Counted from the first letter of the stretch, positions 6,210 to 58,320 are shown. The stretch: DNA of 64,000 bases from Bradyrhizobium ivorense (GCA_943368005.1 CALRKN020000008.1:75705-139704), one strand, 5' to 3'. Program-made: numbers and translations. The notes: generated by a model not told the origin, from the letters alone.

Positions 6210-7589
6210 TCAGTTACCGGACAGGATCCGGAACAGCGAGGCCGCATTCAGCAGGGGGCCCAAAGGAGCCACCGCCTGGGCCAGGAAGTCGTTGCCGCGT
6301 GTCCAGCCATTGCGCGGCACGATCACCACGTCGCCGTTGTGGAGAGCGGGGTTCGCCGGTGAATCCAGGGGCGCTGCGGGATCGAACACGATGGTGCGCG
6401 CCGACACGCTGCCATCGCTCTCCAGGCGAAGCAGGCGCATGTCCCGGGGGTTGGCCCGCAGCGGATTCACGTCTCCGGCCGCCATCACGGCAGCGACCAA
6501 AGGACTGTTGGAGCGCACCTGCTGCAGGCCTGGGGTCTTCACCTCTCCCACCACGGTCACACCGATGGTGCCGGGAGCAAAGTTGGAGGCGGCGGTTCGG
6601 ATCAGAACCTGGTTGGGCTGGACCCCTTCGGCCCGGTTCACCTGCACCATGTCGCCGTCATAGAGAAGGGGGTTCACCGTGGTACCTCCCTCCATCAACA
6701 CGCGCAGATAGTCGAAGCGGTACTCCACAGGTGGGCCGCCCGGAATCGCGCTGGGGCGCTGCAGCACGACATTCGAGAGGTCGGCCACGGCGGTGATGCC
6801 CCCCGCCCGTTGCACCGCATCGACCAGCGTGGGCCAGCCGGCACTCTGAATCTGGGTACCCCCCGCCGCCGGACCGGCTGCCTGGAGATTGGCGCTACCA
6901 GGGCCCTGGGTAAGGCTGTAGAAGCCAGGCTTCTGCACTTCGCCCACCATGGTGATCCGCACCGGCCTGGGGGCCAGCAGGTCGAGATACACCAGGGGGC
7001 GGCGCAGGTAGCGGTCGTAACCGGCGGTGATGCGTTGGCGGGCCTCATCCATGGTGAGCCCCCAAACCGGCACAGAGCCCAGCCGCGGCAGGTTGATCGT
7101 GCCGTCGCTGAGCACCTCCACTTCGGCCTCGTAGCCCTCCACCTTGAACACCGACATCCGCAGGCGATCTCCGGGGCCGAGTCGGTAGCGGAAACCCCGG
7201 CCGGGGTCGGTGGACGGGGCCATGGCCACCGGGGACCGGACCAGACCGGGTGCGGGCACGGCTGCGGGCCGCGGGGCGGGAACCGCAACCGGTGCGCGGG
7301 GGGGGCTGGAGGGGGCAGAAGGGGACATGCCGGGCTGGGGAGCCGTCGTCTCCTCCTGCGGGAGGGGGAACACCGGGCGCTGGGGCTGGGCGGCTGCGGG
7401 ATCCCAGGGGCCCAGGAGCGTGACGGCAGCCAGCCATCCGGCCAGGGACCCAGGTACGACGGCTCGAGGACGGGAAGTGGGCAAGGCGGTGCGACGGCAG
7501 TGGGACAGGGGACGGGACGGGGGCTGCAGCTCTCGGCGGGGACTGTCCCAGGCTCTGGTCGAGCTAATCTTCCCGCACCTTGCACCCAA
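6210..7589 (-). CDS. Outer-membrane polysaccharide export protein (OPX; Wza/KpsD-like, Poly_export + SLBB domains)
   Basis: Poly_export block: YRLGPGDRLRMSVFKVEGYEAEVEVLSDGTINLPRLGSVPVWGLTMDEARQRITAGY. Repeated SLBB-like blocks: VGEVQKPGFYSL, VVGEVKTPGLQQV. Hydrophobic signal-like segment: GSLAGWLAAVTLLG. The true start is uncertain; an in-frame TTG near 7470 is possible. Confidence 0.8.
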   Translation of the reverse strand: MGARCGKISSTRAWDSPRRELQPPSRPLSHCRRTALPTSRPRAVVPGSLAGWLAAVTLLGPWDPAAAQPQRPVFPLPQEETTAPQPGMSPSAPSSPPRAPVAVPAPRPAAVPAPGLVRSPVAMAPSTDPGRGFRYRLGPGDRLRMSVFKVEGYEAEVEVLSDGTINLPRLGSVPVWGLTMDEARQRITAGYDRYLRRPLVYLDLLAPRPVRITMVGEVQKPGFYSLTQGPGSANLQAAGPAAGGTQIQSAGWPTLVDAVQRAGGITAVADLSNVVLQRPSAIPGGPPVEYRFDYLRVLMEGGTTVNPLLYDGDMVQVNRAEGVQPNQVLIRTAASNFAPGTIGVTVVGEVKTPGLQQVRSNSPLVAAVMAAGDVNPLRANPRDMRLLRLESDGSVSARTIVFDPAAPLDSPANPALHNGDVVIVPRNGWTRGNDFLAQAVAPLGPLLNAASLFRILSGN

Positions 7590-7627
7590 TCGTGAAGGCG
7601 AAGGAAGGGAGCCCTCCCGGCGGAGCC

Positions 7628-8563
7628 ATGCTGAACCCCCCTGGCCCGGTTTCCCTCCCGCTCCAGCTGGTCGAACGGGAACTTTCCAGCTTTCGCCTGT
7701 ACTCGTCCCAGGGCCTCGACCTCTACCTGCTGCCAGGTGAGCGCTTCGCCCCCTACGCCGATGCGGTGGGCATCCTCAGGGAGCTCACCTACCGCCAGCA
7801 GCTCTCAGGTTCAGGCCACAGCCACGACCTCGACAGCCGGGATCCCCACTACGACCACTTCCTCCTAGTGGAGGGCAGCAGTGGCGAACTGGCCGGTTCC
7901 GCCCGCCTGCAATTCGTGCCCCAGTGCCACGAGGCCGAAGCGGAGCTGCGGCTGCCCCAGGGGTCGCAGTCCTATTTGGAACACGTCTATCCCGGCCTGA
8001 AGGCCTCATTGGCCCGCCAGGGCAACCACTTGGAAATCGGCCGGGTCGCCCTCGCCCCCCGCTTCCAGCGGCTTCCCCACACGCTGATGTGCCTGTTCCG
8101 GGGAGGCCTGCAGGTGGCCGTGAGCTCCGGCTACGGCTCCATTCACGGGTTGGTGTCGTACAACCACTTCGCCCATGCCGATGCCGTGAACGAGCGGTTC
8201 CTGAGCAGCCTGATGCGGCCGCCGTTCCTGGATACCCGCCAACCCTGCCCCCAGCCCCGCCACCCCCTGGAAGCCATCCAGGCCAGCACCAGTCCGGGCC
8301 CGACGCACACGATCCAGGAACTGGAGCAGCTGATCCGCGCCGAATTGGCGCCCTCGTTCCGCCTGCCCGTGCTGCTGCGCCAGTACATCAACCTGATGGA
8401 GGCACGGGTGCGCAACCTCTCCCTGGCCCGCGATTTCAACCAGATCACCGAGATCCTGATGGCCGCCGACCTCAAGCGGATACCCAGTCGTCGCCTCAGC
8501 CATTTCATCGACTTTGCCCATGAGCCCGTCTACCGGCGCTTCAGCTGGTACCGCGGTGGCTGA
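7628..8563 (+). CDS. GNAT-type N-acyltransferase of the OlsB/hemolysin-like family (Acetyltransf_5-like)
   Basis: Blocks line up by eye with OlsB-type enzymes: LRELTYRQQ...DSRDPHYDHFLLV, GSARLQF, LEIGRVALAPRFQR, LPVLLRQYINLMEA, FNQITEILMAADL. ATG at 7628; the track's alternative start is 7580. Confidence 0.65.
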   Translation: MLNPPGPVSLPLQLVERELSSFRLYSSQGLDLYLLPGERFAPYADAVGILRELTYRQQLSGSGHSHDLDSRDPHYDHFLLVEGSSGELAGSARLQFVPQCHEAEAELRLPQGSQSYLEHVYPGLKASLARQGNHLEIGRVALAPRFQRLPHTLMCLFRGGLQVAVSSGYGSIHGLVSYNHFAHADAVNERFLSSLMRPPFLDTRQPCPQPRHPLEAIQASTSPGPTHTIQELEQLIRAELAPSFRLPVLLRQYINLMEARVRNLSLARDFNQITEILMAADLKRIPSRRLSHFIDFAHEPVYRRFSWYRGG

Positions 8564-8620
8564 ACAGCCCCATGCGGACTGGTACGTTTTCATGGATCTG
8601 GAGCTCGGGAAGGGGTTTTG

Positions 8621-8977
8621 ATGCGAGTTGGCCCCGAGCACGAGATCTCCGGAGCTGCCGCGTCCCCCTCCCCAGAGACCGGTCTGATCGACCGGGCCCC
8701 TGCCCTTGACAGGCCGGTGGATCAGGAAGAACTTCAACAGCGGCTGCAGGAAATCCTGCAGCGCATCTCGGGCGCCGATCCCCAGCTGATCACCCCGGAC
8801 GCCCGCCTGATCGAAGACATCGGCATCGATTCGCTCGGGTTCTACGAGATCCTGATCGAGGCAGACGAGTGCCTGGGCATCAAGATCCGCGAGGAAGACC
8901 TGCTCAGCTTCCGCACCGTGGGCGATATTCAACAGCATCTGCGGAGCCTGGAGACCCCTGATGCCCAGGCCCACTGA
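8621..8977 (+). CDS. Stand-alone acyl carrier protein (with about 35-aa N-terminal extension)
   Basis: Phosphopantetheine attachment motif IEDIGIDSLGFYEILIEAD (DSL) within a 4-helix ACP-length core. A GGGAAGGGG purine run lies upstream of the ATG. Confidence 0.8.
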   Translation: MRVGPEHEISGAAASPSPETGLIDRAPALDRPVDQEELQQRLQEILQRISGADPQLITPDARLIEDIGIDSLGFYEILIEADECLGIKIREEDLLSFRTVGDIQQHLRSLETPDAQAH

Positions 8978-10211
8978 ACGCCTGGCGGTCACCGGCTGGG
9001 GGTGCATCACGCCCCTGGGGTTGGGCGTAGAGGCCACCTGGGAAGCCAGCCTGGCCGGTCGCTCCGGCATCTCGGCTGTGGGCGATGACTGGGCAACTGA
9101 TCTGCCCGCCCGGATTGCGGGTCGGGTGTCCGGCGAGTTCAACGCCAACCTTGAGCCGTTGCTGCAACGGCGGCTGGACCGCTGCTCCCAGCTGGCACTG
9201 CTGGCGGCGCGTCAGGCCTGGGCGAACGCTGCTGACCATTGCGGCGGCGTTGATCCCCGTCGCGTCGCGGTGGTGATCGGCACCGGAATCGGTGGACTGG
9301 CCACCCTGGAGCGCCAGCACACCAACCTGCTGCAGGCCGGTCCTGGCCGGGTGAACCCGCTCACCGTGCCGATGTTGATTGCCAACGCGGCGGCCGGCCA
9401 GATCGCCATCGACCTGGGGCTGCACGGCGGAGCCCACACCCCCGTGTCCGCCTGTGCCGCCGGAGCCGAGGCCCTGCTGCTCGCCCAGATGCTGCTGCAG
9501 GACGACCGGGCCGACGTGGTGCTGGCCGGAGGCAGCGAAGCGCCCGTGAACCGGCTTGGACTGGTGGGCTTCGCCGCCATGCGCGCCCTTTCCTGTCGCA
9601 ACGCATCTCCCGAGCTTGCCTCCCGGCCCTATGCCCAGGACCGGGATGGCTTTGTGCTCTCCGAAGGGGCGGGTGTGCTGGTGCTGCAGCGCGCCGCGGA
9701 TCTGGCCAGCTCCACCCCGCCTGTGCATGGCTGGCTCCAGGCCTGCGGCAGCAGCAGCGACGGCCACCACATCGTGGCCCCGGAACCGGATGGGCTGCAG
9801 GCCAGCCAGGCGATCACCGATGCGCTGCGCCGTGCCGGGCTGGATGCCAGTGACCTGTCGTTTGTCCAGGCCCACGCCACCGGCACACCCGTGGGCGACC
9901 TGGCCGAGGCCAGGGCCCTGCGACGCGGCCTAGGCAGCGCCCTGGATTCCCTGCCTGTCACCGCGCCCAAAGGCCAGCTGGGCCATCTGCTCGGGGCGGC
10001 GGGAGCCGTGGAAACGATCCTGGCGCTCCAGGCCCTGCGTCAGGGTGTAGTGCCCCGGAGTGTCAATGCAATTCCCCAGGATCCGGCCGTGGATCTGGCG
10101 GTGGTGAAGGATGGTCCCCTCACTCTGGGTGCCCGGGGGAGCGAACGCTTCGGGCTGAAGAACGCCTTTGGCTTCGGTGGCCACAACATCAGTCTGATCC
10201 TGGCTGCATAA
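8961..10211 (+). CDS. Beta-ketoacyl-ACP synthase (KAS I/II, Cys-His-His type)
   Basis: 416 aa. RLAVTGWGCITPLG, active-site PVSACAAGAEAL, HATGTPVGD, GHLLGAAGAVE, FGFGGHN. The start overlaps the ACP stop by 17 nt. Confidence 0.9.
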   Translation: MPRPTERLAVTGWGCITPLGLGVEATWEASLAGRSGISAVGDDWATDLPARIAGRVSGEFNANLEPLLQRRLDRCSQLALLAARQAWANAADHCGGVDPRRVAVVIGTGIGGLATLERQHTNLLQAGPGRVNPLTVPMLIANAAAGQIAIDLGLHGGAHTPVSACAAGAEALLLAQMLLQDDRADVVLAGGSEAPVNRLGLVGFAAMRALSCRNASPELASRPYAQDRDGFVLSEGAGVLVLQRAADLASSTPPVHGWLQACGSSSDGHHIVAPEPDGLQASQAITDALRRAGLDASDLSFVQAHATGTPVGDLAEARALRRGLGSALDSLPVTAPKGQLGHLLGAAGAVETILALQALRQGVVPRSVNAIPQDPAVDLAVVKDGPLTLGARGSERFGLKNAFGFGGHNISLILAA

Positions 10212-12234
10212 ATGCCGTGGTGCGGGCGTAGTACGCCTGCACCGCGCGCGCAAAGGTCTGGCGATCGCATCCCTGTTCAGCGAGGCCCGGGTCGCCGAGG
10301 CCCAAGTCTGCCGCCCGACCACGGCGGCAATGAATGGTGGCCAACGGAGCCTGCAGCCTGGAGAGCAGCAGACGCAGCGGACGGTAGAGATCCTGGGCGG
10401 ACATGGAAAGCCCGTGATAGGTGAACGTCCAGGGCACGATCAGGGCCCGATGCTTCCTCGCCAACAGCAGGGCACTGGCCGAAACGCGCTCACTGATCGG
10501 CGTGACCAGTGATCCATTCGGCGCCAACATCACCAGTCCCAGCTCTGCCAGGGTGCGGGAGGCCCGATACACCGCGGAGGTGCGCGATCGGCCATCGCGA
10601 TGGTCCAGCAAACCATGGCCGGCATTAGCCGCCGAAGCTCCGAACCAGGGCATGATGCGGCTCAGATGCAAGCTGGCCGTGGTGATGCTGGGCAGCTGAA
10701 GCACGCCCTGTACAACCAGAACATCCACGGGATTTTCATGGTTCCAGATATAAACAACAGCACGTCCAGAAGGCTCACTCGGTTGGCTGTCATCCACCAC
10801 AACAGTTACACCCAAGGCACGTAGGCCCACTTGGGCCGTGCATACCAGGAGCTGGGCTGCCAACCTGCGCTGGCCCAGGGCGAGCGCCAGGAGCTGGATG
10901 CCGTAAATCAGAAAATAGGAAACCCCCAGACCCAGTCGCCAGACCATCCGCCAAGGCACAATCCAGCTCCCCGTCACGGGCGGGCGAGGAGCATCGGGCA
11001 ACCGCGGTGCGGGCGCCAGGCGGCGCGCCTCCGGACCGATCGGGAAAGTGATCCGAAAGGGAAAATCACCATCAAAATTGCCATTCACCTGGGTTGTGGT
11101 CACCAGGTGGGCATAGAAGCGGTAGAAGAGGGGCCGCTCACTGGTCTGGGGGTTCAGCCAGAACTGATCCAGCGGATTCTGATCGGTGAGGCCAGAGAGA
11201 TTGTAGAAGGTGCGACCCATCACCTTGGTGGGAACGGCATGGTAAAGAGCCTGCAGTCCCACCGTGCTGTTCACGGTTACTACACCTCGACAGGTTCGCA
11301 GAAATCGACTGAGAGCGCCATCATGAAAATAATGAACTCTCCCATCAACGCCATAACGACTCGCCATCAACTGGATCAGACGACCATAATTGTTATAGCC
11401 TCGGTCCCGAGGGTGGTGCTTGAAAGCGAGATGGTCTGAAGCATGGGCATGCGTGGCAAACGAGCGAATCACATCTTCGATGAATTCATGCATGCCGCGA
11501 TAGGGAGAACCGAGCTGGATCTGGGAGTCGCTGGACACCTGCAGCACCACCAGAAAAAACGACAAGTGCTCCAGCAGCCGGCGCTTCAACCCACGCTCCT
11601 GCCAGCGATACAGCCAGAAGCGCCAGCTACCCCTCAGTTGGCACCATAAAAAGCGCGGCGATGGCTGCAGCTTATGTTCACCTTCAATAATTGGATATCG
11701 GGTGAATGCGTGCTGGATGAAGGTGGGCGCCTTCCAGATCTTGCGCCAGCGCCAGCCGGGATCAAGGCAGCCGCCCGGCAATTGGTTCACGGGTGGAAGG
11801 CCGCGATAGAACTCAACGGGCCGATTGAGATTGGAGCGCGCATTCACCCGATCCCGTTCCAAACTCACATAATTGGGACGGATATACCCCAACTCAAACA
11901 CCCAGGCCTCCACGCCGGCGCTCTGGGCCTCCTCAATGGCAATGCGATGGGGAATAATGAAGTCCCCATACATAAAGATATGGCGGATACCACGCTCTGC
12001 CAACAGTCGGCGCAGAAAGGGCCGCCATTCCTCCATGCTCCCTGAGAAGGGAACCTTCACCTCCGCAGGAAAACCAAACTCCTGGAGGGGAAAAGCAACT
12101 TTGACAACCGGAATTCCGCAGCCCCGCAAATAGCGACAGAACCGCGCAAAAAACAAGCCGATTGGCCCCATCAGCAACAGCACCGGGCCATCGATCCGCA
12201 CCTGAACCAGAGCTGGAGCCCGATCGCCTGCCAC
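10189..12234 (-). CDS. kpsS: KpsS-like capsule beta-Kdo transferase (Capsule_synth) fused to a C-terminal membrane-anchored HX4D acyltransferase (PlsC/OlsA, LPLAT family)
   Basis: aa 15-395 are KpsS-like: VKVAFPLQEF, HIFMYGDFIIPHRIAIEEA, WVFELGYIRPNYVSLERDRVNARSNL, LQVSSDSQI, FKHHPRD, VVTVNSTVGLQAL. A Pro-rich linker and a TM follow (WRMVWRLGLGVSYFLIYGIQLLALAL). Then come IWNHENPVD (HX4D, aa 499-504), APNGSL (FPEGT-equivalent) and LIVPW. Confidence 0.8.
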   Translation of the reverse strand: MAGDRAPALVQVRIDGPVLLLMGPIGLFFARFCRYLRGCGIPVVKVAFPLQEFGFPAEVKVPFSGSMEEWRPFLRRLLAERGIRHIFMYGDFIIPHRIAIEEAQSAGVEAWVFELGYIRPNYVSLERDRVNARSNLNRPVEFYRGLPPVNQLPGGCLDPGWRWRKIWKAPTFIQHAFTRYPIIEGEHKLQPSPRFLWCQLRGSWRFWLYRWQERGLKRRLLEHLSFFLVVLQVSSDSQIQLGSPYRGMHEFIEDVIRSFATHAHASDHLAFKHHPRDRGYNNYGRLIQLMASRYGVDGRVHYFHDGALSRFLRTCRGVVTVNSTVGLQALYHAVPTKVMGRTFYNLSGLTDQNPLDQFWLNPQTSERPLFYRFYAHLVTTTQVNGNFDGDFPFRITFPIGPEARRLAPAPRLPDAPRPPVTGSWIVPWRMVWRLGLGVSYFLIYGIQLLALALGQRRLAAQLLVCTAQVGLRALGVTVVVDDSQPSEPSGRAVVYIWNHENPVDVLVVQGVLQLPSITTASLHLSRIMPWFGASAANAGHGLLDHRDGRSRTSAVYRASRTLAELGLVMLAPNGSLVTPISERVSASALLLARKHRALIVPWTFTYHGLSMSAQDLYRPLRLLLSRLQAPLATIHCRRGRAADLGLGDPGLAEQGCDRQTFARAVQAYYARTTAFMQPGSD

Positions 12235-12286
12235 CGTTCCCTCACCCTTGCTCTGCAGGGCCCAACTTTGCCACGTGGCGCAGGGT

Positions 12287-14257
12287 TCAACGCCGGCGCA
12301 ACCGCCCCCAGTGGCGGAAGATGCGCTGCCGCAGGCTCAGGGGTTCGGGCGGGGCGGACCGCCAGGCCAGCAACTCCTCGATCGCCTGCTCCGGCTCGAT
12401 GAACAGGCCGCTGTGGCGGCTCACATAGCGGGGGTAGTCGATCAGCGCCGCATGCACGAGGGCATCCAACTCCAGGGAGCGACCGCGCCGTTCACAGCGG
12501 AGCCTGTCGTGGCTCAGACCCCAGCCCGCATAGAAGGGCAGTCCCCAGGTGTGCACCTCGAGTCCGCGGAGCAGGGCCTCAAAGCCGGCGATCGAAGTGA
12601 GCACATGCAGGGCATCGATCTGGGTGAAGAGTTGCTGAATCGAGGCTTCGAACAGCACCTCATCGCAGCCCTGGGCCACCTGGGCCTCGCCCACCCCCTG
12701 GCGACACAGGCCTGCCACCACATCGGGATGGGGCTTGTATACGAGATAGGCGTCGGGTTCCGCCTGGCGCACCGCCGCCACCAGCTCCAGGTTGCGGGCG
12801 ACACCCGGTGCCCCCAGCCGGATGGAGGCATCCGACTCCACCTGCCCCACCACCAGCACCACCCGCCCGGCCGCGGCGGGACGCTGCCAGGCGGGAGCCC
12901 GGAGGTTGTATTTGGTAATCGCCTGGCTCACCAGCTGGCGGCGCAGCTCGGCCGCCCGTCGCAGCTGGCCCTCACTCCAGCTGCCATGGGCCAGCAGGTG
13001 CTCCAGGTCACTGGGGGCTGTGGCGTCGTAGTAGATCCCGCGACGGTCCAGCACCCAGGAGATGGGATCGATCAGATCGGCCCCCAGACCCACCGAGCGC
13101 AGGAAGCCGTCCTCCACATGCAGCAGCGCCAGCCGGCGATGTTCCACCTGCCGGAGCAACCGGGTGCTGGCCCGGCGACCCCAGATCGCCACCAGGGCAG
13201 CGGAGCGGCCCGGGCGCTGCCAGGAAAAGCGAAACCGCAGCGGCGGACCCGCCAGGAAACGACGCAGCACCCGCTGCTTCCACGGGGTGAAACCGAAGGC
13301 CTCCACCGGCCCGGGCTGGGCCAGCCGCAGGCGGCGCTGCAGGCCGATGGCGGCGATCAACTGTTCCGGCGTGCAGGGCTGGTGGCGATGGGGATCGATG
13401 TACACCGCCGACTCCACCAGGGCGGCATGCACCAGGTCGGCCAGCTGCGGCGACTCCCCCTGCTGGCGGCGCCGCGGAGCCGCCAGGGCATCCGTCGTGA
13501 GTCCCCAGCCTGCATAGAACGGCAGGCCGAAGCAGTGCACCGGCCGCCCGCAGAGGAGGGCCTCGAAGCCCAGCTGGGACGTGACCACATACACCGCCTC
13601 AGCGCGCTCTAGCAGGGCAATGGGATGGCCGCCGCTGGCCTCAAGCACGATGCGGGGATCCGCCAGCTGCCGGCGGCTGAAGTGGCCGCGCTTGCGGCCG
13701 GCCACCACATCCGGGTGGGTCTTGACCACCACCCGGCAGTGCGGATGGGAGGCCAGCGCCGCCGTGAGCATGGCGCCGAACTGTGGTGCCGAGGCCGCAC
13801 CGAGGCGGATCGAGAGGTCTCCGGCGGTCTGGTCGACCACCAGCACGTAGGGCCCTGACGGAGCGGGCGCCTCCGCCGCCCCGTTGTACTTGCTCACCCG
13901 CTGCTCTCGCCAGAGCTGCTGCAGACCCAGGGCACGCTCCCGCTCGGCGGTGCTGTGGGGTCGGGCAATCCGCTGCTCCAGGCGGCTGGGCACCGAGGCG
14001 TCGTAGTAAACGCCCAAGTCATCGAGCAGCAACCCCAGGGGTGCGCTATCCGGCCCCAGCCCCAGCGATCGCACCAGGGCATCTTCACAGCGCCAGAGGG
14101 GCAGGCCGCGGGTGGCCGCCAACTGTTCAGCTACACGGGCACTGGGCTTGCGGCCCCAGGCCAGCAGGGCATCGAGGGGCTCGCGGCGGCAGCGACGATG
14201 GCCGCACACCAGAGTGTGGGGTGCCAGCAGGGCCGGCAGGGTGCTGTGCCGAAGCAT
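12287..14257 (-). CDS. kpsC: KpsC-like capsule polysaccharide biosynthesis protein (two tandem Capsule_synth domains)
   Basis: Duplicated blocks: WGRKPSA...EDALVRSLGLG...GLLLDDLGVYYDAS and IWGRRAS...VEDGFLRSVGLGADLIDPISWVLDRRGIYYDAT. Each is followed by V(V)DQ..D.SI and KxHPDVVAG. The start is taken at the Met of MLRHSTLP (14257); the track ORF extends to 14494. Confidence 0.8.
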   Translation of the reverse strand: MLRHSTLPALLAPHTLVCGHRRCRREPLDALLAWGRKPSARVAEQLAATRGLPLWRCEDALVRSLGLGPDSAPLGLLLDDLGVYYDASVPSRLEQRIARPHSTAERERALGLQQLWREQRVSKYNGAAEAPAPSGPYVLVVDQTAGDLSIRLGAASAPQFGAMLTAALASHPHCRVVVKTHPDVVAGRKRGHFSRRQLADPRIVLEASGGHPIALLERAEAVYVVTSQLGFEALLCGRPVHCFGLPFYAGWGLTTDALAAPRRRQQGESPQLADLVHAALVESAVYIDPHRHQPCTPEQLIAAIGLQRRLRLAQPGPVEAFGFTPWKQRVLRRFLAGPPLRFRFSWQRPGRSAALVAIWGRRASTRLLRQVEHRRLALLHVEDGFLRSVGLGADLIDPISWVLDRRGIYYDATAPSDLEHLLAHGSWSEGQLRRAAELRRQLVSQAITKYNLRAPAWQRPAAAGRVVLVVGQVESDASIRLGAPGVARNLELVAAVRQAEPDAYLVYKPHPDVVAGLCRQGVGEAQVAQGCDEVLFEASIQQLFTQIDALHVLTSIAGFEALLRGLEVHTWGLPFYAGWGLSHDRLRCERRGRSLELDALVHAALIDYPRYVSRHSGLFIEPEQAIEELLAWRSAPPEPLSLRQRIFRHWGRLRRR

Positions 14258-14634
14258 GCCCACCGCCGGCAGGCCGAGGCGCACGGCGGCGCTGGAGTGG
14301 GCCAAGGCGGGGCAGGGGCCTGCGGCAGAGGCCCAAGTTACCGAAGGCGCGGCACGCCCATGGCTGCTACGTTCGCTCCACCCGATCACGGGCCATTCGC
14401 CCATGCAGCTCGAGGGTTTGACAGGACAGGCACTGGATGCCGTCTGCACAGCCGTGGCCACTGAAACCGGCGTTCCCGCCGGCCGGGTGCGCAAGGTTCT
14501 GCTGGCGGCACAGCGCCTGCACCAGGCCGGCGACCGGACTTCGACCGTTGAAAGGTCGACTGCCCCTCCCCACCCCCTGCGGTTCTATCCCCTTGGTGCA
14601 AACGGACGGATCCAGCCCCAGCCCCAGGCTGACC
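14258..14634. promoter_or_regulatory. Divergent intergenic region between kpsC/kpsS (-) and the neuA operon (+); presumed divergent promoters
   Basis: About 380 bp with no convincing CDS, between the two outward-facing gene sets. I recognised no specific promoter boxes. Confidence 0.3.
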
Positions 14635-15390
14635 ATGCCGCCGACCGGGCCCGTGATTGATCCCAATCTGGGACCGATCGCCCTGATTCCGGCCCGGGGA
14701 GGGTCGAAGGGAATCCCCGCCAAAAATCTGCAACGGGTGGGGGGCGTGCCCCTGGTGGTGCGCAGCGTGCAGGCGGCCCGCAGCGCCAGCAGCCTGCACG
14801 GCGTCTGGGTGAGCAGCGACGATCCGGCGATCGGCGAACACGCCGAAGCGGCCGGTGCCGGCTGGTTGCGCCGCCCTGGCACCCTCTCCGGTGATCAGGC
14901 CTCATCGGAGAGCGCCCTCACCCATGCCCTCGGGCTGTTGGCCGAACGGGGGCCCCTGCCCCCGCTGTTCGTGTTCCTGCAGTGCACCTCCCCGTTCACC
15001 ACCGGAACGGAAATCGATGCAGTGGTGGCGGCTCTACAGGGAAGCGCCGCCAACATGGCCTTCAGTGTGGTTCCCTGGCATGGATTCCTCTGGCGTGCTG
15101 ACGCCCACGGCCATGGCATCGGAGTGAACCACGACGCCCACCAACCCCGGCAGCGCCGTCAGGACCTCTGCCCCACCTATCTGGAGACGGGAGCCATCTA
15201 CGCCATGCGCACCGAAGCGTTTCTGCAGGCCGGCAGCCGCTTCCTCCAGCCCACCCTGCCGGTTCCGCTGGAGGGCTACGCCCCTGAAATCGACACCCCC
15301 GCCGATCTCGCTCTCTGTGAACGGCTGGCACCCCTGCTGGAGGGAGCTGGACAGCCGCCAGCGAAGCAAGCGCGGGCGGATCTGGGTTGA
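14635..15390 (+). CDS. neuA: Acylneuraminate (nonulosonate) cytidylyltransferase, NeuA-type (CTP_transf_3)
   Basis: ATG at 14635. IALIPARGGSKGIPAKNLQRVGGVPLV is the NeuA-type (not KdsB-type) P-loop. Also FVFLQCTSPF and YLETGAIYAM. Confidence 0.8.
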   Translation: MPPTGPVIDPNLGPIALIPARGGSKGIPAKNLQRVGGVPLVVRSVQAARSASSLHGVWVSSDDPAIGEHAEAAGAGWLRRPGTLSGDQASSESALTHALGLLAERGPLPPLFVFLQCTSPFTTGTEIDAVVAALQGSAANMAFSVVPWHGFLWRADAHGHGIGVNHDAHQPRQRRQDLCPTYLETGAIYAMRTEAFLQAGSRFLQPTLPVPLEGYAPEIDTPADLALCERLAPLLEGAGQPPAKQARADLG

Positions 15391-16679
15391 TGGACAGCCT
15401 GCAGGGGCGCCAGGTGGCAGCCCTGGCCTGTTTTGACTCCTTCGGCAAGACCGCGATGAACCTGCTGCAGGTGGCGCGGCTGCAGGGGGCCCATACCAGG
15501 CTGTACCTGCTGGAGCTGCCTGGACGCAAGCTGTCCCGCCGCCAGTCGCTGGAGATACGCCGGATCGATCCCCGCACCAAGATCGTGCAGTGCCCCTGGT
15601 CGCAGCTGCGCCAACTGCGCAGCGAACTGGTGGAACTCGATGCCCTCGTGCTCGGGCTGGACGGCAGGCGCACCCGCGAGACCCACCTGCTCATGCAGTC
15701 CGCCTGGCTGGACCCGCTGCGGCGACCCGTGCTGATCAGCGCCTACCCGGGCATCCTCTTTCGCCATCAACTCGAGGGGATGATGGATCGTTCAGGCGTG
15801 GATCTGCTTTGCCTGAACGCCGAATCCGACGCCCACCTCTACCGCCAGGGCTGCGCGGCCCTGGGCCTCGACTCCGGCAATGCCCTGGTGACCGGCCTGC
15901 CGATTCTCTGGTCGCTGCAACCCCGTCTCCAGGTGCCGGACGGGGCCTCGATCGTGTTCTTCGAACAGCCATCGGTGCCGGACAACCCGATCCAGCGCAA
16001 GTACATCTGCCGGCGGCTGGCCCAGCTGGCCCTGGCCTGGCCTGGGCACCGGGTGATCTTCAAGCCGCGCATCTCCCGGGTGGAGGCCACCCTGCACCGA
16101 CACCACGGGGAGATGGTGAGCCGCATTGAAAAACTGAGCAAGCGGGTGACCAACCTGCAGATCAGCTACAAGCCAAGCCTGAGCCTGCTGAACAGCTGCG
16201 GCTGTGCGATCACCGTGTCATCCACGGCGGCGATGGAAGCCATGGCCCTGGGGGTGAGCACCCGGATCATCAGCGATCTGGGGGTGAACGAGAGCCTGGG
16301 CAACCACTACTTCCTGGAATCGGGCGCCCTGGCCGATTTCGACGCCATCGAGCGTGACCCCTTCACCATCCGGCATGACCGCTCCTGGCTGGAACGCCAG
16401 GGGTACCGCAGCGATGGGGCCCAGCTGCTGGTCAGCACCCTATGCCACCTGCTGGAACAGCCCCTGCAGGCCCCGTCCCAGCTCCAGGCGGGCCCACCGG
16501 GATGGGGCAGCCAGGCCTGGCAGGCCTATGCCCTGGCCAAGGGGGGCCGACGGATGCTCAGTTCAGCGGGGTCCCGATCCAAGCTGAAGGCCAGCCACCA
16601 GGGACTCGAACTGCTGCGGCGCCTGCGCCAGAACCTGGTGGGGTTCTGGCTGCTGGAACGGCTGCTGAAGGGACGATGA
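15390..16679 (+). CDS. Uncharacterised protein, paralog 1 of 3 (putative GT-B-like glycosyl/NulO transferase)
   Basis: ATG overlaps the neuA stop (TGATG). It shares blocks with the next two ORFs: DLLCLNAESDAHLYRQ, IVFFEQPSVPDNPIQRKYICRRLAQLALAWPGHRVIFKPR, NLQISYKPSLSLLNSCGCAITVSSTAAMEAMALG. Confidence 0.65.
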   Translation: MDSLQGRQVAALACFDSFGKTAMNLLQVARLQGAHTRLYLLELPGRKLSRRQSLEIRRIDPRTKIVQCPWSQLRQLRSELVELDALVLGLDGRRTRETHLLMQSAWLDPLRRPVLISAYPGILFRHQLEGMMDRSGVDLLCLNAESDAHLYRQGCAALGLDSGNALVTGLPILWSLQPRLQVPDGASIVFFEQPSVPDNPIQRKYICRRLAQLALAWPGHRVIFKPRISRVEATLHRHHGEMVSRIEKLSKRVTNLQISYKPSLSLLNSCGCAITVSSTAAMEAMALGVSTRIISDLGVNESLGNHYFLESGALADFDAIERDPFTIRHDRSWLERQGYRSDGAQLLVSTLCHLLEQPLQAPSQLQAGPPGWGSQAWQAYALAKGGRRMLSSAGSRSKLKASHQGLELLRRLRQNLVGFWLLERLLKGR

Positions 16680-16689
16680 CACGCTCACG

Positions 16690-17727
16690 ATGAACCTTGG
16701 CCTGGTCTGTCAACGCGAGCCTGGAGTGGGCGCCTGCCACCTGCTCGCCACCGAGCTGCGGCATCTGGGCGTCACCGTGACCCTGATCCCGGCCGACGCC
16801 CCCCTGCCTGGCGGAGCCGCGGACGGACGATCGATTCCGCTGGAGCCCCTGGCCGCGGCCAGCGGTGACCTGCTCTTCGGCCTGGACGCCATCGGCGTGT
16901 TTCTGGAGGGTCCCGAGCTGGTGGCCTTCCGCCAGGTGCACGCCGCGGCAGCCAGGCTGAGGGGCCGGGCCCCGGTGCCCCTGTTCACCGGGCCCATCCG
17001 CCCCCTCTGCGGCGATGCCCTGGCGGCCGACCTGCTGCCCCGGCTTGGCTATGACCTGATCTGCTTGCAAGGCGAAGCCCAGGTGCAGGAGCTGGCCTGG
17101 TTGGTGAGGGGCAGCCGCGATCACCAGCACCAGCAGGTCGCCATCGGGCTGTGGTGCGTCCCCCACCAGCCGATCGGCCACAGTGAGCCTGCCGCCAAGC
17201 TGCTGCTGGTGCTCGACCAGGCGGACATTCCGCCCTCGCCCTTTGCCAATGGGGTGCTCTACCAGCGCCTGCGGACCATCGCCCAGGACAACGCCGGCTG
17301 GCTGGTGCGCATCCAGCCGGATGGGCCGCTGGCCGAGGAGCCCGACACCTGGCCCGACACGAGTCTGGCCTGGCACCACCACCAGGACCGCACTCCCCCC
17401 GCCAATCTGCAGCTGGGGCGGGCCGATGATCTGCCACTGGCCCTGATGCAGGCCAGTGCCTGCCTCGGCATCTCCTCCAGCTGGCTGCTCACCGCCATGG
17501 TGTGGGGCAAGCCCACGGCAGTTCTGGGCGACTACGGCATCCGCACCGAGTTCAACGGGCCGCTGTTCTTTGGCTCCGGGGCCATGCACAGGCTGGCCGA
17601 CTGCCTGCCCCTGGACCGCATGCTCGAGCTGCCCCGCCCCAATCCCCGGTGGCTGGCGGCGCGGGGTTGGGCCATTGCCGACGGCCCCCAGCGGCTGCTG
17701 CAGCGTGTGCGGGAGCTGCAGCGATGA
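16690..17727 (+). CDS. Uncharacterised protein, paralog 2 of 3
   Basis: GYDLICLQGEAQVQELAWL, LLLVLDQADIPPSP...LRTIAQDNAGWLVRIQP, NLQLGRADDLPLALMQASACLGISSSWLLTAMVWG. These are collinear with paralogs 1 and 3. Confidence 0.65.
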   Translation: MNLGLVCQREPGVGACHLLATELRHLGVTVTLIPADAPLPGGAADGRSIPLEPLAAASGDLLFGLDAIGVFLEGPELVAFRQVHAAAARLRGRAPVPLFTGPIRPLCGDALAADLLPRLGYDLICLQGEAQVQELAWLVRGSRDHQHQQVAIGLWCVPHQPIGHSEPAAKLLLVLDQADIPPSPFANGVLYQRLRTIAQDNAGWLVRIQPDGPLAEEPDTWPDTSLAWHHHQDRTPPANLQLGRADDLPLALMQASACLGISSSWLLTAMVWGKPTAVLGDYGIRTEFNGPLFFGSGAMHRLADCLPLDRMLELPRPNPRWLAARGWAIADGPQRLLQRVRELQR

Positions 17728-38467: not shown

Positions 38468-38912
38468 GTCAACGCCAGGCCGAGCTGCTCCTTACTCTCG
38501 CAGCAATGAGGTCTGGCGGAGCGGAACGACCTCCAGACAGAGGCCCCGGTGAACCAGCAGCCAGAGGGATGCGCCCGCCCCAGGCCCTGAACATATCCAC
38601 CGCCAGATCGGTTTCACCCGGCACTCCCTCATCCCACAGACGCTTCCGCGGCTGCCACGGGAATTGACGGCTGCTCGTGCCGCCATCAATCCTTGTCTGG
38701 CGGAGCCGCCAGCCGATCTACTGGCAAAACTGCGGAAATGTGTTGATGGCGGGAGTGAGCCCTCATGAATGCAGGAGAAGGTAGGCTGCCACCGAAGAGG
38801 TCGCCTGGGGGAGGCCAGATCAGCCGCCGCCAACTGGTCCGATGGGCAGCAGACATAATCCTGGGTAATCGATCAAAAGATGAATACCACTTCTGGAGAA
38901 ACAAGAAGTCAC

Positions 38913-43093: not shown

Positions 43094-43220
43094 GGGAGTG
43101 AATAGCTATCCGACCAAAGAGAGAAGATGATCGCGCAGGCAATTGGTATCGAATAAAGTGACTGAAGACATCCAATTCAAAGATCATCCATGCGTGCACT
43201 TCAATACTTAGTACTGATGG

Positions 43221-52571: not shown

Positions 52572-54059
52572 CTATGGGGCCAGCCATGGGGCCAGGCCAG
52601 CCAGATCGGAGCGAGGCTCAGCCCCGGCAGCCCGCAGACGCCGCAGGACCGCCCGCTCCAGTGCCACCAGGGGAGGATCACTCCAGGGCTCGAATCCGCC
52701 GGACCAAAGACCCTCTTCGGCGATCAGATCGGCGCCCTGATCCAGGGGTGGGCTGAAGGGAGCCTCAACCAGCAGCCACTGCCACTGCACACCCTCTGGC
52801 AGGGGCAGTTCCCGCACGGCGGGCTCCCACTCCAACGGCGCCCACAGCTGGAGGGGGGCGGCCGCCTGCAGGACCTCCAGCCAACCGGGCGGCCACTGGG
52901 GCGCGTTGGGCCAGCCCGGGCCGAACACGTCGGGATCGGCCAGCAGCAGGTGGCGGCTCTCCAGTCGCTCCGGGGCCGCGACCGCAAACCGCCCCGGGTC
53001 GGCCACCAACAGGGCGGGCCCCACTGGCAACGGTGACGCCGCAGCCTGGGTCTGCCGATGCAGCGCCAGACGCCAGACCCGCAACTGTTCGCGGTAAATG
53101 CGATTCCAGAGAAGGGGGTCAGCCACGGCCGTGCTGCGCTGCTCGCCCGGTTCGGGCTCCAGCCAGGGCCAGGTGAGCCAGGGTTTGGGGCCGGCAAAAT
53201 GAATCACCGACAAGCCTTCGGCGCAACCCCCGAGGAACTTCACCAGATACTTCACATTGCAATTGAAGTTCAATGGCATCAAGTCAACGGGTTGATCTAC
53301 GAGGAAAAGATTCCACACTTTCTGATCAGCAAAGCGATCCAACAGGGGGCATACCGGCTCAGCTGCCCGCTCGATCAGCCGTTCAAAACGGTGCTGCTCG
53401 GCATCGCACAGCGACCAGCCGGGCACGGAGAGCACACCGGAATTCAGCACGGGGCGCTGGGTGAACGGCGAGATAGCTGCCCAAGGCCGATCTCCGCAAT
53501 CCGGCACCGCGCGGAACTGCTCACCCTCAGCCCAGAGCGGATCGAGGGCAGCGGTGATCAACAGATCCGCGTCCAGCACCACCACCCGCCGATACCCCCG
53601 CAGCGCGAAGGCCTGGCCATTGAGATAACCGAGCATGCCGATCCGCTGGCGATTGCGCGAATCGGTGGGCACCTGCGCAGCCCAGTCTGGCTGGGGCTGA
53701 ACAAAGTGAATCGCTGGGTGAATGGTTTCCAGCCTGCGCTGGAGAAAGGAACCCAGGCTGCCGTCGTGCACCACCCACACCGGAGCGGTGAGCTGGGGAT
53801 ACGTCGCCCGCAGACTCAGAAGCATGGCCTCCAGTCCCCGGTAGAAGCGATCGTTGGCAACCGTGAGGAATGCCACGTTCGGCCCAGGGTCTAGGGGGTC
53901 GAAGCAACGGTGGTGGCGACTGGGCCAGTGCAAGTCCCCCAGGAGCTCCTGTTCACTGCGACGCAGCGGCCCCCCCCGCAAACGCAACTGCTCAGCCTGT
54001 TGCCGGGCAGCCTGCTCCAGCTCCCGACGACAGAGCCAGCCGTAGGCATCTTCACTCAA
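52572..54059 (-). CDS. Glycosyltransferase family 8 domain protein (495 aa)
   Basis: NVAFLTVANDRFYRGLEAMLLSLRATYP, VVVLDADLLITAALDPLW (DxD), VIHFAGPKPW. The TTG start overlaps the kpsE stop by 4 nt. Confidence 0.75.
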   Translation of the reverse strand: MSEDAYGWLCRRELEQAARQQAEQLRLRGGPLRRSEQELLGDLHWPSRHHRCFDPLDPGPNVAFLTVANDRFYRGLEAMLLSLRATYPQLTAPVWVVHDGSLGSFLQRRLETIHPAIHFVQPQPDWAAQVPTDSRNRQRIGMLGYLNGQAFALRGYRRVVVLDADLLITAALDPLWAEGEQFRAVPDCGDRPWAAISPFTQRPVLNSGVLSVPGWSLCDAEQHRFERLIERAAEPVCPLLDRFADQKVWNLFLVDQPVDLMPLNFNCNVKYLVKFLGGCAEGLSVIHFAGPKPWLTWPWLEPEPGEQRSTAVADPLLWNRIYREQLRVWRLALHRQTQAAASPLPVGPALLVADPGRFAVAAPERLESRHLLLADPDVFGPGWPNAPQWPPGWLEVLQAAAPLQLWAPLEWEPAVRELPLPEGVQWQWLLVEAPFSPPLDQGADLIAEEGLWSGGFEPWSDPPLVALERAVLRRLRAAGAEPRSDLAGLAPWLAP

Positions 54060-58264: not shown

Positions 58265-58320
58265 GGCAGTGGAGCAACCCTAGCCTGGGTGCCCAACCCC
58301 ACTTGCCCAGCGGCACGCCC

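Follow-up and report, generated by a model that had tools for sequence, protein, structure and literature searches.

In the rkp-1 region of Sinorhizobium meliloti, the FAS/PKS-like protein RkpA and the ACP RkpF are encoded along with the KpsS/KpsC-like proteins RkpJ and RkpI, and these enzymes, like NodE/NodF, are thought to supply a special lipid. The locus analyzed here, part of a 64,000-nucleotide stretch of DNA (the window), resembles both systems, in which dedicated FAS-type enzymes and a specialized ACP accompany the genes for a Kdo capsule or for an N-acylated glycan signal. By its description, rkp-1 relies on a type I-like synthase that is large and multidomain, and it is not known to have a PF13444 GNAT or a PlsC fusion. 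Exosortase-linked exopolysaccharide loci also encode an N-acyl amino acid synthase within a polysaccharide locus. That synthase is a member of the same GNAT superfamily, in some cases with an ACP in its vicinity, but in our locus the partner is KpsS/KpsC with an ABC transporter and not exosortase. Müller et al. 2009 is said to be a reference for the rkp-1 region, and Fraysse et al. 2005, from its title, reportedly describes an S. meliloti Kdo polymer with a phospholipid anchor.

The genes for ornithine-lipid synthesis, olsB and olsA, are adjacent (PMC11631085). As in OlsB + OlsA, OlsF, and GlsB + GlsA, a PF13444 N-acyltransferase is paired here with a neighboring PlsC-superfamily O-acyltransferase. 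Unlike in those systems, the O-acyltransferase is fused to KpsS, being neither free-standing nor fused to the GNAT, this GNAT family occurs only beside kpsS/kpsC, and one clade has a dedicated ACP and KAS. With the group 2 (ABC-transporter-dependent) capsule loci of E. coli and Neisseria the window shares KpsS-like and dual-module KpsC-like proteins, a cytidylyltransferase gene by kpsC, and KpsM/KpsE/KpsD-like export genes, all in one locus. In contrast to those loci, KpsS is extended by a PlsC-type domain and has an aminolipid-type GNAT as an obligatory neighbor, the KpsT-like gene has lost its ATPase motifs, and the sugar donor may differ from CMP-Kdo. We know of no KpsS-fused PlsC or linked GNAT in the canonical kps regions 1 and 3.

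The same gene order is found in the "Kps cluster" of marine Synechococcus (Syn-eCAG_008-009, island Syn_GI125): kpsD/wza, "acyl-CoA N-acyltransferase", "PP-binding ACP", fabF2, kpsS, kpsC, neuA, ..., sulfotransferase, DUF1997, kpsM, kpsE, kpsT (Doré et al. 2020, 2023; Cyanorak clusters CK_00002156, CK_00002157, CK_00009077, CK_00036768, and CK_00002158). The window is a freshwater/brackish Cyanobium-type version of this cluster, which has already been compared with group 2/3 kps loci (PMC10119275). The gene list is already known, catalogued as a kps-like capsule cluster by Doré 2023. The capsule/kps passages of Doré 2020 and 2023 list the acyl genes and map them ecologically without assigning a function, and mention neither the OlsB/OlsF relation nor the PlsC fusion; a "lipid anchor" reading is absent from those of Doré 2023 and from its supplements. 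The second clade lacking ACP and KAS and the split-PlsC variants are described below.

Table 1. Capsule-locus features in the window, with the evidence for each assignment.
Feature	Coordinates	Strand	Evidence
Wza/KpsD-like outer-membrane polysaccharide export protein	6210..7373	-	Poly_export 3.5e-19 and SLBB domains; 387 aa
PF13444 GNAT, OlsB/OlsF-type N-acyltransferase, picocyanobacteria-specific subfamily	7628..8563	+	PF13444 41.3 bits
Stand-alone ACP with ~35-aa N-terminal extension	8621..8977	+	PP-binding 1.9e-11, 44.5 bits; 118 aa
FabF-like beta-ketoacyl-ACP synthase (KAS), KAS II type	8961..10211	+	ketoacyl-synt N 1e-47, C 2.8e-31; 416 aa
PlsC/LPLAT-type acyltransferase domain, C-terminal in KpsS fusion (aa ~425-681)	10189..10962	-	PF01553 aa 488-601, 28.7 bits
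KpsS-type beta-Kdo glycosyltransferase domain of fusion (aa 1-~400)	11035..12234	-	Capsule_synth aa 86-387, 5.3e-57
KpsC-like dual-module Capsule_synth protein	12287..14389	-	PF05159 3.8e-79, 4 matched stretches; 700 aa
CMP-sugar synthetase, NeuA/PseF/KdsB-like cytidylyltransferase	14635..15390	+	CTP_transf_3 3.4e-23; PseF 1.2e-30; KdsB subfamilies ~1e-11
Three consecutive DUF6716 putative glycosyltransferases	15390..19043	+	PF20471 2e-56, 2.5e-13, 1.9e-53
NeuB-family nonulosonic-acid synthase fused to CBS, SAF, and xylose-isomerase-like TIM barrel	19040..21364	+	NeuB 6.7e-77; AP_endonuc_2 1.6e-16; SAF, CBS
KpsE-like (PCP-3-type) export protein	54056..55375	-	tblastn 30-43% identity to clade-II loci, downstream of kpsM/kpsT there
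KpsM-like ABC-2 permease	55495..56340	-	ABC2_membrane 2.5e-5, 24.3 bits (cutoff 26.9, just missed); tblastn to clade-II loci
KpsT-like protein, three degenerate ATPase motifs	57404..58264	-	30% identity, E 6e-29, to canonical KpsT of locus L009

The initial annotation had described three tightly packed genes, for a GNAT, an ACP with a DSL site, and a Cys-His-His KAS, converging on kpsS. An ORF check confirmed their positions and common orientation on the plus strand, and all three identities proved right by Pfam (every model among PF13444, PP-binding, and ketoacyl-synt N/C matched), NCBIfam, and motifs. Both overlaps it had claimed are real: KAS, with its ATG at 8961, shares 17 nt with the end of the ACP gene, and its 3′ end (stop at 10211) shares 23 nt with that of kpsS (stop at 10189). 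The former recurs in 37/48 loci, which suggests that ACP and KAS are translationally coupled; the 3′ overlap ranges from 23 to 59 nt in most loci of clade I, and in L009 it is 40 nt. The Wza/KpsD-like gene is divergent from the GNAT gene and lies upstream of it in nearly all related loci.

The GNAT ORF opens at a TTG at 7580, but its start is likely the ATG at 7628, giving a protein of 311 aa that is identical over its full length to a database protein (P0001). Its score exceeds the PF13444 cutoff (22.4 bits), and aa 48-310 (~260 aa) are homologous to the C-terminal, N-acyltransferase half of OlsF (8.3e-13); besides OlsF and GlsB, nothing was returned by the NCBIfam search at E <= 0.01. The AF2 model has a pLDDT of 94, with EsaI, an acyl-ACP-dependent AHL synthase, as best PDB fold match. 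Outside picocyanobacteria, its nearest relatives are aminolipid synthases of OlsF-like type, with OlsF model scores of 292-432 bits and further matches to the GlsB and OlsB models. The "OlsB type" first proposed stands at the level of the OlsB/OlsF/GlsB aminolipid-synthase superfamily but not as orthology: with scores far under the equivalog cutoffs (47.7 against 620, 15 against 300), the protein forms a separate subfamily, and its acceptor cannot be read from homology.

The ACP carries the motif IGIDSLGFY, and [IV]G[IVL]DSLGFY is found in 47/48 ACP-carrying loci; its scores fall below every listed ACP model cutoff. In the KAS, the motifs SACAAG, DGHHI, AHATGT, APKGQLGH, and FGFGGHN are intact and the catalytic motifs are conserved across loci. 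It scores 410.6 bits on TIGR03150 fabF (cutoff 493.75) and 400 bits on PRK07314 (above the 387 cutoff), and its best PDB matches are FabF 1j3n (1.6e-96) and Synechocystis FabF 1e5m (2.6e-85).

On the opposite strand, the full kpsS fusion gene spans 10189-12234. Its KpsS domain matches positions 14-387 of 390 of the NF050054 KpsS model at 272.8 bits, under the equivalog cutoff of 600 bits, and LQVSSDSQ and KHHPRDRGYN are invariant in the KpsS alignment. That a PlsC-type domain is fused to it, as first noted, was borne out by a PF01553 score above the cutoff (23 bits) and by a profile match to the PDB, the only hit being T. maritima PlsC (5kym, 5e-5), with the HX4D and PEGT/PNGS motifs aligned. 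In the AF2 model two long predicted helices (425-452, 456-473) precede the domain. Its HX4D motif reads NHENPVD, and motif III is PNGS or PSGS where PEGT is usual. NHxxPxD and P(N/S)GSL are kept in every GNAT-adjacent locus where the alignment covers them; in marine lineages whose fused copy has lost HX4D, a separate PF01553 gene lies between kpsS and KAS. Selection has maintained the PlsC activity. The KpsC-like gene adjoins kpsS in related loci.

As for export, no Pfam match was obtained for the KpsE-like protein, but its match in L009 falls within a 419-aa gene (11828-13087) directly after kpsM and kpsT, and its position corresponds to that of the Cyanorak "kpsE". The L009 match to the KpsM-like permease lies within a gene with an ABC2_membrane call. 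In the KpsT-like protein, Walker A, signature, and Walker B are all replaced, and the Pfam ABC_tran search was empty.

The window's gene layout recurs in dozens of species-level genomes at protein identities of 50-90%, so the arrangement is not due to chance. We sampled 80 species-level GNAT loci, all picocyanobacterial, plus metagenome loci. Wherever there is enough flank in these 80, the GNAT (33-100% identity) adjoins KpsS, an active PlsC module, and KpsC; the kps-less genomes that the initial annotation would have taken as a sign of an unrelated lipid pathway were not encountered where flank exists. In a second GNAT clade (clade II, 33-41% identity), most loci lack ACP and KAS, and NeuB and CMP-synthetase genes are absent within 10 kb, but the GNAT still adjoins KpsS-PlsC. 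ACP and KAS are therefore not essential to the core chemistry. The trio first described is real in the window and in clade I, but what is conserved as a functional unit is the GNAT with an active PlsC module and KpsS/KpsC. This linkage is strict and long-lived, persisting to 27-35% identity through several rearrangements. In a 42%-GC contig (L095), a 27%-identical GNAT overlaps the start of an unfused KpsS (51% identical to that of the window) beside a HepA/MsbA-type exporter; no PlsC was seen on this 7.9-kb contig.

With about even confidence, we propose that a lipid is built by the GNAT, with ACP and KAS as optional members, together with the PlsC-type module that is fused to KpsS or encoded beside it, and that this unit is dedicated to a KpsS/KpsC-initiated, ABC-transporter-type surface polysaccharide of picocyanobacteria, with an OlsB/OlsA-style acyl-amide lipid as putative KpsS/KpsC acceptor. 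We infer the sequence of steps, the donor (3-hydroxyacyl), the amine, and the use of the product in place of phosphatidylglycerol (PG) as follows. Drawing an acyl chain from the housekeeping pool, the KAS would condense it with malonate while the dedicated ACP serves as carrier, and reduction by the housekeeping FabG would leave a 3-hydroxyacyl thioester on an ACP poorly handled by the rest of fatty-acid synthesis; loci without ACP and KAS would use ordinary 3-hydroxyacyl-AcpP. The GNAT would then move the acyl group onto an amine, for which a small amino acid or amino alcohol is the likeliest candidate, giving a lyso-aminolipid, to which the PlsC-type domain would add the second chain, as OlsA does. 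Since this domain and KpsS are one protein, the completed lipid could pass directly to the transferase of Kdo (or a related ulosonic acid); KpsC would extend it, and the glycolipid would prime the exported polymer.

Some evidence runs against an aminolipid acceptor. The unusual motif III of the PlsC domain, the low equivalog scores of the GNAT, the rarity of ACP and KAS in clade II, and the L095 contig with no PlsC seen all count against our proposal. An N-acyl amino acid has no obvious hydroxyl for Kdo transfer like that of the PG glycerol, except where one is provided by the head group or by the 3-OH, and cyanobacteria do make PG. The canonical KpsS acceptor is PG, in an anchor said to be highly conserved across all species (PMC11666461). 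The anchor could still be PG as in E. coli, with the PlsC domain re-acylating or remodeling (lyso)PG at the site of Kdo transfer and the GNAT separately modifying the Kdo linker or a lipid. KpsS and KpsC match the canonical enzymes over their full length and keep the conserved motifs, the same paper reports PG with poly-Kdo and writes the terminal lipid as (lyso)PG, which leaves room for acyl remodeling, and among solved structures the fused domain is closest to 5kym, a genuine lysophosphatidate acyltransferase. We nevertheless consider this unlikely: it leaves an OlsB/OlsF-type GNAT unexplained as the tightest-linked partner of KpsS, L095 included, and the PlsC domain has diverged so far that only its own family came up in a word-indexed search. 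To our knowledge, amine-containing phospholipids are absent from cyanobacteria, which would deprive the GNAT of such a substrate.

The acyl genes might instead decorate the polysaccharide, through short- or medium-chain (3-hydroxy)acyl N-acylation of an amino sugar or nonulosonic acid, on the model of NodA/NodE/NodF acylating Nod factors or of the 3-hydroxybutyryl groups of pseudaminic acids. Nonulosonic acids bear N-acyl groups, the clade-I trio adjoins the CMP-sugar synthetase, NeuB-family synthase, and DUF6716 transferases, and ACP and KAS mostly co-occur with these genes, both being missing in most clade-II loci, where NeuB and CMP-synthetase genes are absent within 10 kb. Such a role is rather improbable, since the clade-II GNAT adjoins KpsS-PlsC without nearby nonulosonic-acid genes, one locus (L063) has ACP and KAS without NeuB or CMP-synthetase matches, the GNAT homologs are long-chain aminolipid synthases and not PseH-type sugar acetyltransferases, the KAS resembles FabF, unlike the short-chain initiators of FabH type, and the conserved PlsC module would have no role. 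That the product is a free membrane aminolipid (for example phosphorus-sparing and ornithine-lipid-like), sharing the capsule island only through horizontal transfer or co-regulation, seems to us very unlikely. The usual products of OlsB/OlsA-type pairs are bulk membrane lipids, which take the place of phospholipids under P stress (PMC11631085), and the kps-like cluster is enriched in low-P, low-N waters (PMC10119275). However, most lineages have the O-acyltransferase and KpsS in one fusion protein, gene ends overlap, no GNAT was found away from KpsS/KpsC in the 80 loci, and the linkage survives at the lowest identities and across rearrangements.

Our analysis suggests that in picocyanobacteria the capsule may be anchored on a purpose-built lipid and not on ordinary PG. 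The enrichment in low-P waters fits a phosphorus-sparing anchor but does not demonstrate it. If the proposed lipid-building unit is confirmed, abundant phototrophs would have a capsule anchored on a dedicated lipid.

The reading frames, Pfam matches and catalytic motifs at the edge of the capsule locus bear out what the initial annotation said of the three co-oriented genes: their positions, the DSL site of the ACP, the Cys-His-His triad of the KAS and both overlaps, which are exact (17 nt between the ACP and KAS genes, 23 nt between the 3′ ends of the KAS gene and kpsS). The GNAT was read from the ATG at 7628, in an ORF that opens with TTG at 7580; the resulting 311-aa protein is identical to the database protein P0001 and has the length called for this gene on related contigs. 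No promoter or terminator sites were identified by scanning positions 7200-10400.

The GNAT contains PF13444 (Acetyltransf_5; 41.3 bits with a cutoff of 22.4) at residues 66-166 of the long ORF. Its description as OlsB-like holds at the superfamily level, through this domain and its homology to one half of OlsF, but the protein belongs to a subfamily of its own, below the OlsB, OlsF and GlsB equivalog cutoffs. In the NCBIfam search it reached 47.7 bits against the 620 set for OlsF and 15.1 against the 300 set for GlsB, and gave no match to the OlsB model at E <= 0.01. The alignment spans the entire N-acyltransferase half of the bifunctional OlsF (model positions 308-569 of 570, E 8e-13), that is, about 260 aa that extend beyond the GNAT core and make up the whole N-acyltransferase unit. 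By phmmer, the GNAT likewise aligns with the C-terminal ~280 aa of OlsF-like proteins of 570-640 aa, at ~30% identity; the four of these that were scanned score 292-432 bits with the OlsF model and also match those for GlsB/GlsA and OlsB. Among 1.8 billion representative proteins, searched exhaustively, the GNAT has a tight picocyanobacterial family, followed by a few full-length relatives at 33-40% identity. Judged by these sequence matches, the GNAT is a distinct subfamily within the OlsB/OlsF/GlsB aminolipid N-acyltransferases and not an ortholog of any of them.

The AlphaFold model of the GNAT (pLDDT 94) has the acyl-ACP-dependent AHL synthase EsaI as its best fold match (E 1.7e-5), followed by other GNATs. 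All fold matches are to generic GNATs and AHL synthases with low TM-scores, so that the acceptor specificity cannot be read from them, and a sequence search of the PDB gave nothing meaningful (best E 0.69). The predicted resemblance to EsaI is the only hint that a 3-hydroxyacyl group might be transferred from acyl-ACP to the α-amino group of an amino acid. Two other identities were considered for this protein. A PseH-like sugar acetyltransferase was rejected because of the OlsF-type homology and because the GNAT is kept in loci without nonulosonic-acid genes. A PEP-CTERM/exosortase-associated N-acyl amino acid synthase was also set aside, since only the OlsF and GlsB models were matched at E <= 0.01; no exosortase or PEP-CTERM genes were detected among the window ORFs scanned.

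The ACP (118 aa, including an N-terminal extension) matches PF00550 (PP-binding, 44.5 bits) and carries the phosphopantetheine-attachment serine in the motif IGIDSLGFY, which is found as [IV]G[IVL]DSLGFY in 47 of 48 loci. It is not the housekeeping AcpP, as its scores are under every listed cutoff for ACP models (among them 54.8 vs 84 and 39.5 vs 70.45 bits). The KAS has both thiolase-fold domains, N-terminal (PF00109, 1e-47) and C-terminal (PF02801, 2.8e-31), and alignment to FabF structures (1j3n) together with a motif census located the complete Cys-His-His triad, the active-site Lys and the GFGG motif. With 410.6 bits it stays below the 493.75 required by TIGR03150, and so is not a housekeeping FabF, while it passes the looser PRK07314 (400 vs 387); its name in Cyanorak is fabF2. 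A recent origin of the pair by duplication of a cyanobacterial acpP-fabF was not established: the KAS scores higher against the Thermus FabF than against that of Synechocystis, in a comparison that contained no picocyanobacterial housekeeping FabF.

The kpsS product (681 aa) consists of a full KpsS-type Capsule_synth module followed by a PF01553 acyltransferase domain. The former is a single PF05159 module (194 bits) that aligns with positions 14-387 of the 390 in NF050054 and scores 272.8 bits against an equivalog cutoff of 600; by sequence the protein is a diverged KpsS that carries one additional domain. In comparison with KpsS/KpsC of group 2 capsules, the same full-length module is present, and the differences include the added PlsC domain and the linked aminolipid-type GNAT. 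The fusion of an OlsA/PlsC-type domain to KpsS, as originally proposed, was confirmed by a PF01553 score above the cutoff (28.7 vs 23 bits) and by an HX4D motif (NHENPVD; NHxxPxD in related loci) that aligns with that of the Thermotoga maritima PlsC (5kym). The latter was the sole match of the domain profile among PDB sequences (E 5e-5), covering the N-terminal helices, the HX4D and the PEGT-type motif, here PNGS. The domain is well below TIGR00530, the 1-acylglycerol-3-phosphate acyltransferase model (25.8 vs 102.95 bits). Its motif III, of the F-P-E-G-T-R type, reads APNGSL or FPSGSL, with Pro and Gly kept and Glu, Thr and Arg replaced, a form conserved throughout the family. When the PlsC domain was used by itself as the query, a word-indexed homolog search recovered fragments of its own family only, and the domain must therefore be very divergent. 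In the AlphaFold model of the fusion, two long helices (residues 425-452 and 456-473) precede the PlsC domain and form a possible membrane-anchoring segment. Foldseek with the full model mainly matched the GT-B domain (UDP-GlcNAc 2-epimerases at the top, KpsC 6mgd at rank 42) and was uninformative on the PlsC domain.

Scanning one genome per species with the GNAT alignment led to a set of 80 loci, whose neighboring genes were recorded by a tblastn census. All 80 belong to picocyanobacteria, namely Cyanobium, Prochlorococcaceae MAGs, Vulcanococcus, Aphanothece and marine Synechococcus (among them the complete genome of MIT S1220). Two of the contigs come from MAGs labeled Mesorhizobium and Bifidobacterium; these labels look like binning errors, as gene content and similarity are those of picocyanobacterial loci. 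Wherever the contig was long enough, a Wza gene lies upstream, and the GNAT is followed by KpsS, the PlsC module and KpsC. Conservation in genomes lacking kps genes, the main observation that could speak against the capsule link, was looked for, and no GNAT locus without kps genes was found among the 80 species-level loci where the flank suffices.

The GNATs fall into two clades. Clade I proteins are 54-100% identical to the window GNAT and come with the full GNAT-ACP-KAS trio; the order purB-Wza-trio-KpsS-KpsC-cytidylyltransferase-DUF6716 is conserved from freshwater Cyanobium to TARA Oceans Synechococcus. In clade II (33-41% identity), the GNAT converges directly on KpsS-PlsC without ACP or KAS, and canonical KpsM, KpsT and KpsE are encoded nearby. 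The exceptions in clade II are two loci with both ACP and KAS (L063 and L090) and one, L010, with an ACP before the 2.6-kb contig ends. Clade II loci encode a 340-aa GT1-like glycosyltransferase (Glyco_trans_1_2, ~3e-5) between the genes for Wza and the GNAT, a position that holds an intergenic spacer only in clade I. The linkage of the GNAT to kpsS/kpsC stood, but the trio as a functional unit has to be redefined: since most clade II loci have no ACP and KAS, the core consists of the GNAT, the PlsC module and KpsS/KpsC, with ACP and KAS as accessories. Among more distant relatives, P0125, P0136 and P0138 lie on contigs of 1.3-3.8 kb with uninformative contexts. P0139, which is 27% identical to the GNAT, is encoded on a 42%-GC metagenome contig (L095), where a HepA/MsbA-type ABC exporter lies upstream; its stop overlaps the beginning of a KpsS gene that lacks the fusion and whose product has 51% identity to the window KpsS module. 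The partnership of GNAT and KpsS must be older and wider than the fusion. The product of this contig may be a small Kdo-type glycolipid flipped by an MsbA-like pump.

All 82 loci whose alignment extends over the acyltransferase motifs have both NHxxPxD and P(N/S)GSL; a further locus, L049, has a C-terminal fragment only. In one group of marine Synechococcus, KpsS is 630 aa long and its C-terminal domain has deletions and no HX4D (P0336 and P0340). In these loci a separate PF01553 gene of 195-250 aa directly follows kpsS, before the convergent KAS gene, and L040 and L047 show the same geometry. The arrangement resembles an ongoing duplication or fission that retains the acyltransferase activity in the locus, and the predicted PlsC activity stays in cis even where the fusion decays. 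A PlsC-superfamily partner therefore adjoins the GNAT either as a domain of the convergent kpsS or as a stand-alone PF01553 gene where the fused copy has decayed. The window GNAT is in this respect arranged as in olsB/olsA, but its partner sits in kpsS.

The window has a GC content of ~68% and is picocyanobacterial, with its best database matches in Cyanobium/Prochlorococcaceae genomes. Upstream of the trio are housekeeping genes (apcABC, ftsW, ccdA, ccs1, queF, glnB and purB) and a divergent Wza/KpsD-type exporter. Downstream of kpsS are found, in order, a dual-module KpsC, a cytidylyltransferase closer to PseF/NeuA than to KdsB, three DUF6716 putative glycosyltransferases, a NeuB-family fusion and two sulfotransferases. 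These are followed by many glycosyltransferases, some of them in a low-GC island that resembles a variable region of the serotype type gained by horizontal transfer, and finally by KpsE-, KpsM- and KpsT-like genes. This is a large locus, probably for an ABC-transporter-type surface polysaccharide, with the trio and KpsS at its conserved edge. A contig of marine Synechococcus (L094) encodes the NeuB fusion in the same 761-aa architecture. The sulfotransferases suggest that the exported polymer is sulfated, its variable part may be polymerised by the GT2-RgpF protein, and the BNR/sialidase-like protein may be a glycosidase acting on a nonulosonic-acid polymer.

For the export genes, the OPX protein is present, the KpsM-like protein is just below the Pfam cutoff, and the KpsE-like one was recognised solely by similarity to its clade II counterparts. 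The KpsT-like protein has lost all three ATPase motifs (Walker A, AVNGPESRA in place of GANGAGKST; signature, WPNAQKDAL in place of YSSGMRSRL; Walker B, DFDVIAVGR in place of DFDVYLIDE), and it has no Pfam ABC_tran match. Judging by these motifs it appears to be an inactive ATPase, and scanning the window for ABC ATPase motifs detected no further one.

Coordinates of features in the window and in the related loci L009 (clade II), L093, L094 and L095
Feature	Position	Strand	Remarks
GNAT	7628-8563	+	PF13444
ACP	8621-8977	+	
KAS	8961-10211	+	FabF-like
kpsS	10189-12234	-	C-terminal PlsC-type domain
kpsC	12287-14389	-	
NeuB-family synthase fusion	~19040-21364	+	N-terminal CBS, SAF, C-terminal xylose-isomerase-like TIM barrel (AP_endonuc_2), in one ORF
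Two sulfotransferases	21361-22137, 22207-23037	+	Sulfotransfer_2; Sulfotransfer_1/3; directly after the NeuB gene
1150-aa multidomain protein	23067-26519	-	GT2 and RgpF (rhamnan synthesis) domains
Low-GC island	~38900-46300		44-48% vs ~68% GC; GT1/GT4-like, GT61, methyltransferase, several ORFs without Pfam match
KpsT-like, degenerate	57404-58264	-	30% identity, E 6e-29, to the canonical KpsT of L009
BNR/sialidase-like beta-propeller	58183-59535	+	BNR_2 1e-29; adjoins the kpsT-like gene
GT1-like glycosyltransferase	L009 3529-4551	-	
HX4D-less KpsS fusion and separate PF01553 gene	L093 7035-9705; L094 10001-12673		Marine Synechococcus
Capsule genes beside P0139	L095 274-5859		HepA/MsbA-type ABC exporter, GNAT, unfused KpsS, single-module Capsule_synth, MAPEG-family membrane protein

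At the sequence level, the homologies of the parts, their intact catalytic motifs, purifying selection and an obligate linkage kept through rearrangements are established here. The initial interpretation, a candidate pathway to a novel (amino)lipid capsule anchor, is partly supported: the identities and the linkage are strong, and the chemistry of the anchor is what we infer from them. In the olsB/olsA pathway an amine is N-acylated from 3-hydroxyacyl-ACP and the 3-hydroxyl is then O-acylated (PMC11631085). The GNAT and the PlsC domain would mirror these two steps, and with PlsC tethered to KpsS, the completed lipid would pass to the glycosyltransferase by which the anchor is begun. ACP and KAS, whose 17-nt overlap suggests translational coupling in 37 of 48 loci, could hold one round of extension on a private carrier and reserve its 3-oxo or 3-hydroxy intermediate for the GNAT; clade II would use the housekeeping acyl pool. 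The sugar transferred by KpsS may be a nonulosonic acid instead of Kdo.

We give even odds to the proposal, itself a family of explanations, that the KpsS/KpsC glycolipid owes its lipid end to this module, which would make or complete it. The stronger version is tentative and rather doubtful: the acceptor of KpsS would be a phosphate-free aminolipid, an acyloxyacyl-amide made by the GNAT and the tethered PlsC and fed by ACP/KAS in one clade, in place of PG. It is unlikely that PG stays the acceptor, with the PlsC domain remodeling (lyso)PG and the GNAT adding another modification. An N-acyl decoration of the amino or nonulosonic sugars of the polymer, whose NeuB and cytidylyltransferase genes lie close by in the window, is a little less probable still; clade II and L063 have the GNAT or ACP/KAS with no such genes nearby. 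An independent pathway for a membrane aminolipid would agree with the family of the GNAT, but it is hard to square with the KpsS-PlsC fusion and with zero kps-less loci among 80, and we consider it very improbable.

The lipid end of ABC-transporter-dependent capsules, PG with poly-Kdo, is regarded as universal and is thought to act as the capsule export signal. In the passage on this anchor in PMC11666461, it is described as "highly conserved among all species". The rkp-1 region and NodE/NodF are apt functional analogies to the trio. For picocyanobacteria, a 12-gene Kps cluster common to Synechococcus clades III and WPC1 is described in the capsule passages of Doré et al. 2020, and those of Doré 2023 (PMC10119275) report a kps-like cluster enriched in Fe-replete, low-N, low-P waters. 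The supplement of the latter gives the order kpsD/wza, "acyl-CoA N-acyltransferase", "PP-binding ACP", fabF2, kpsS, kpsC and neuA, with DUF1997, kpsM, kpsE and kpsT further on. Both the genes and their co-localisation were thus already catalogued for Synechococcus. The OlsB/OlsF relationship, the PlsC fusion and a lipid-anchor role appear neither in the Doré 2023 supplements, where "lipid anchor" has 0 matches, nor in the capsule/kps passages of both main texts. Targeted literature searches that paired OlsB with capsules or KpsS, or KpsS with acyltransferases and cyanobacteria, brought up no publication proposing such a pathway.

Experimental follow-up is merited, as cultured strains bearing the locus exist and mass spectrometry of the terminal lipid is established. 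Should the anchor be ordinary PG, the finding shrinks to an accessory acylation module of a catalogued capsule island. If GNAT and PlsC replace or alter the anchor, the product would be a natural variant of the conserved PG/poly-Kdo theme and a new class of glycolipid, KpsS-PlsC would be a natural fusion in which to examine the presentation of the acceptor lipid to KpsS, and there would be a biochemical reason for the enrichment of the Synechococcus cluster in P- and N-poor ocean regions. A phosphate-free acceptor, if true, would give ABC-transporter-dependent capsules their first non-phospholipid anchor, and would be an adaptation that spares phosphorus in phototrophs abundant worldwide.
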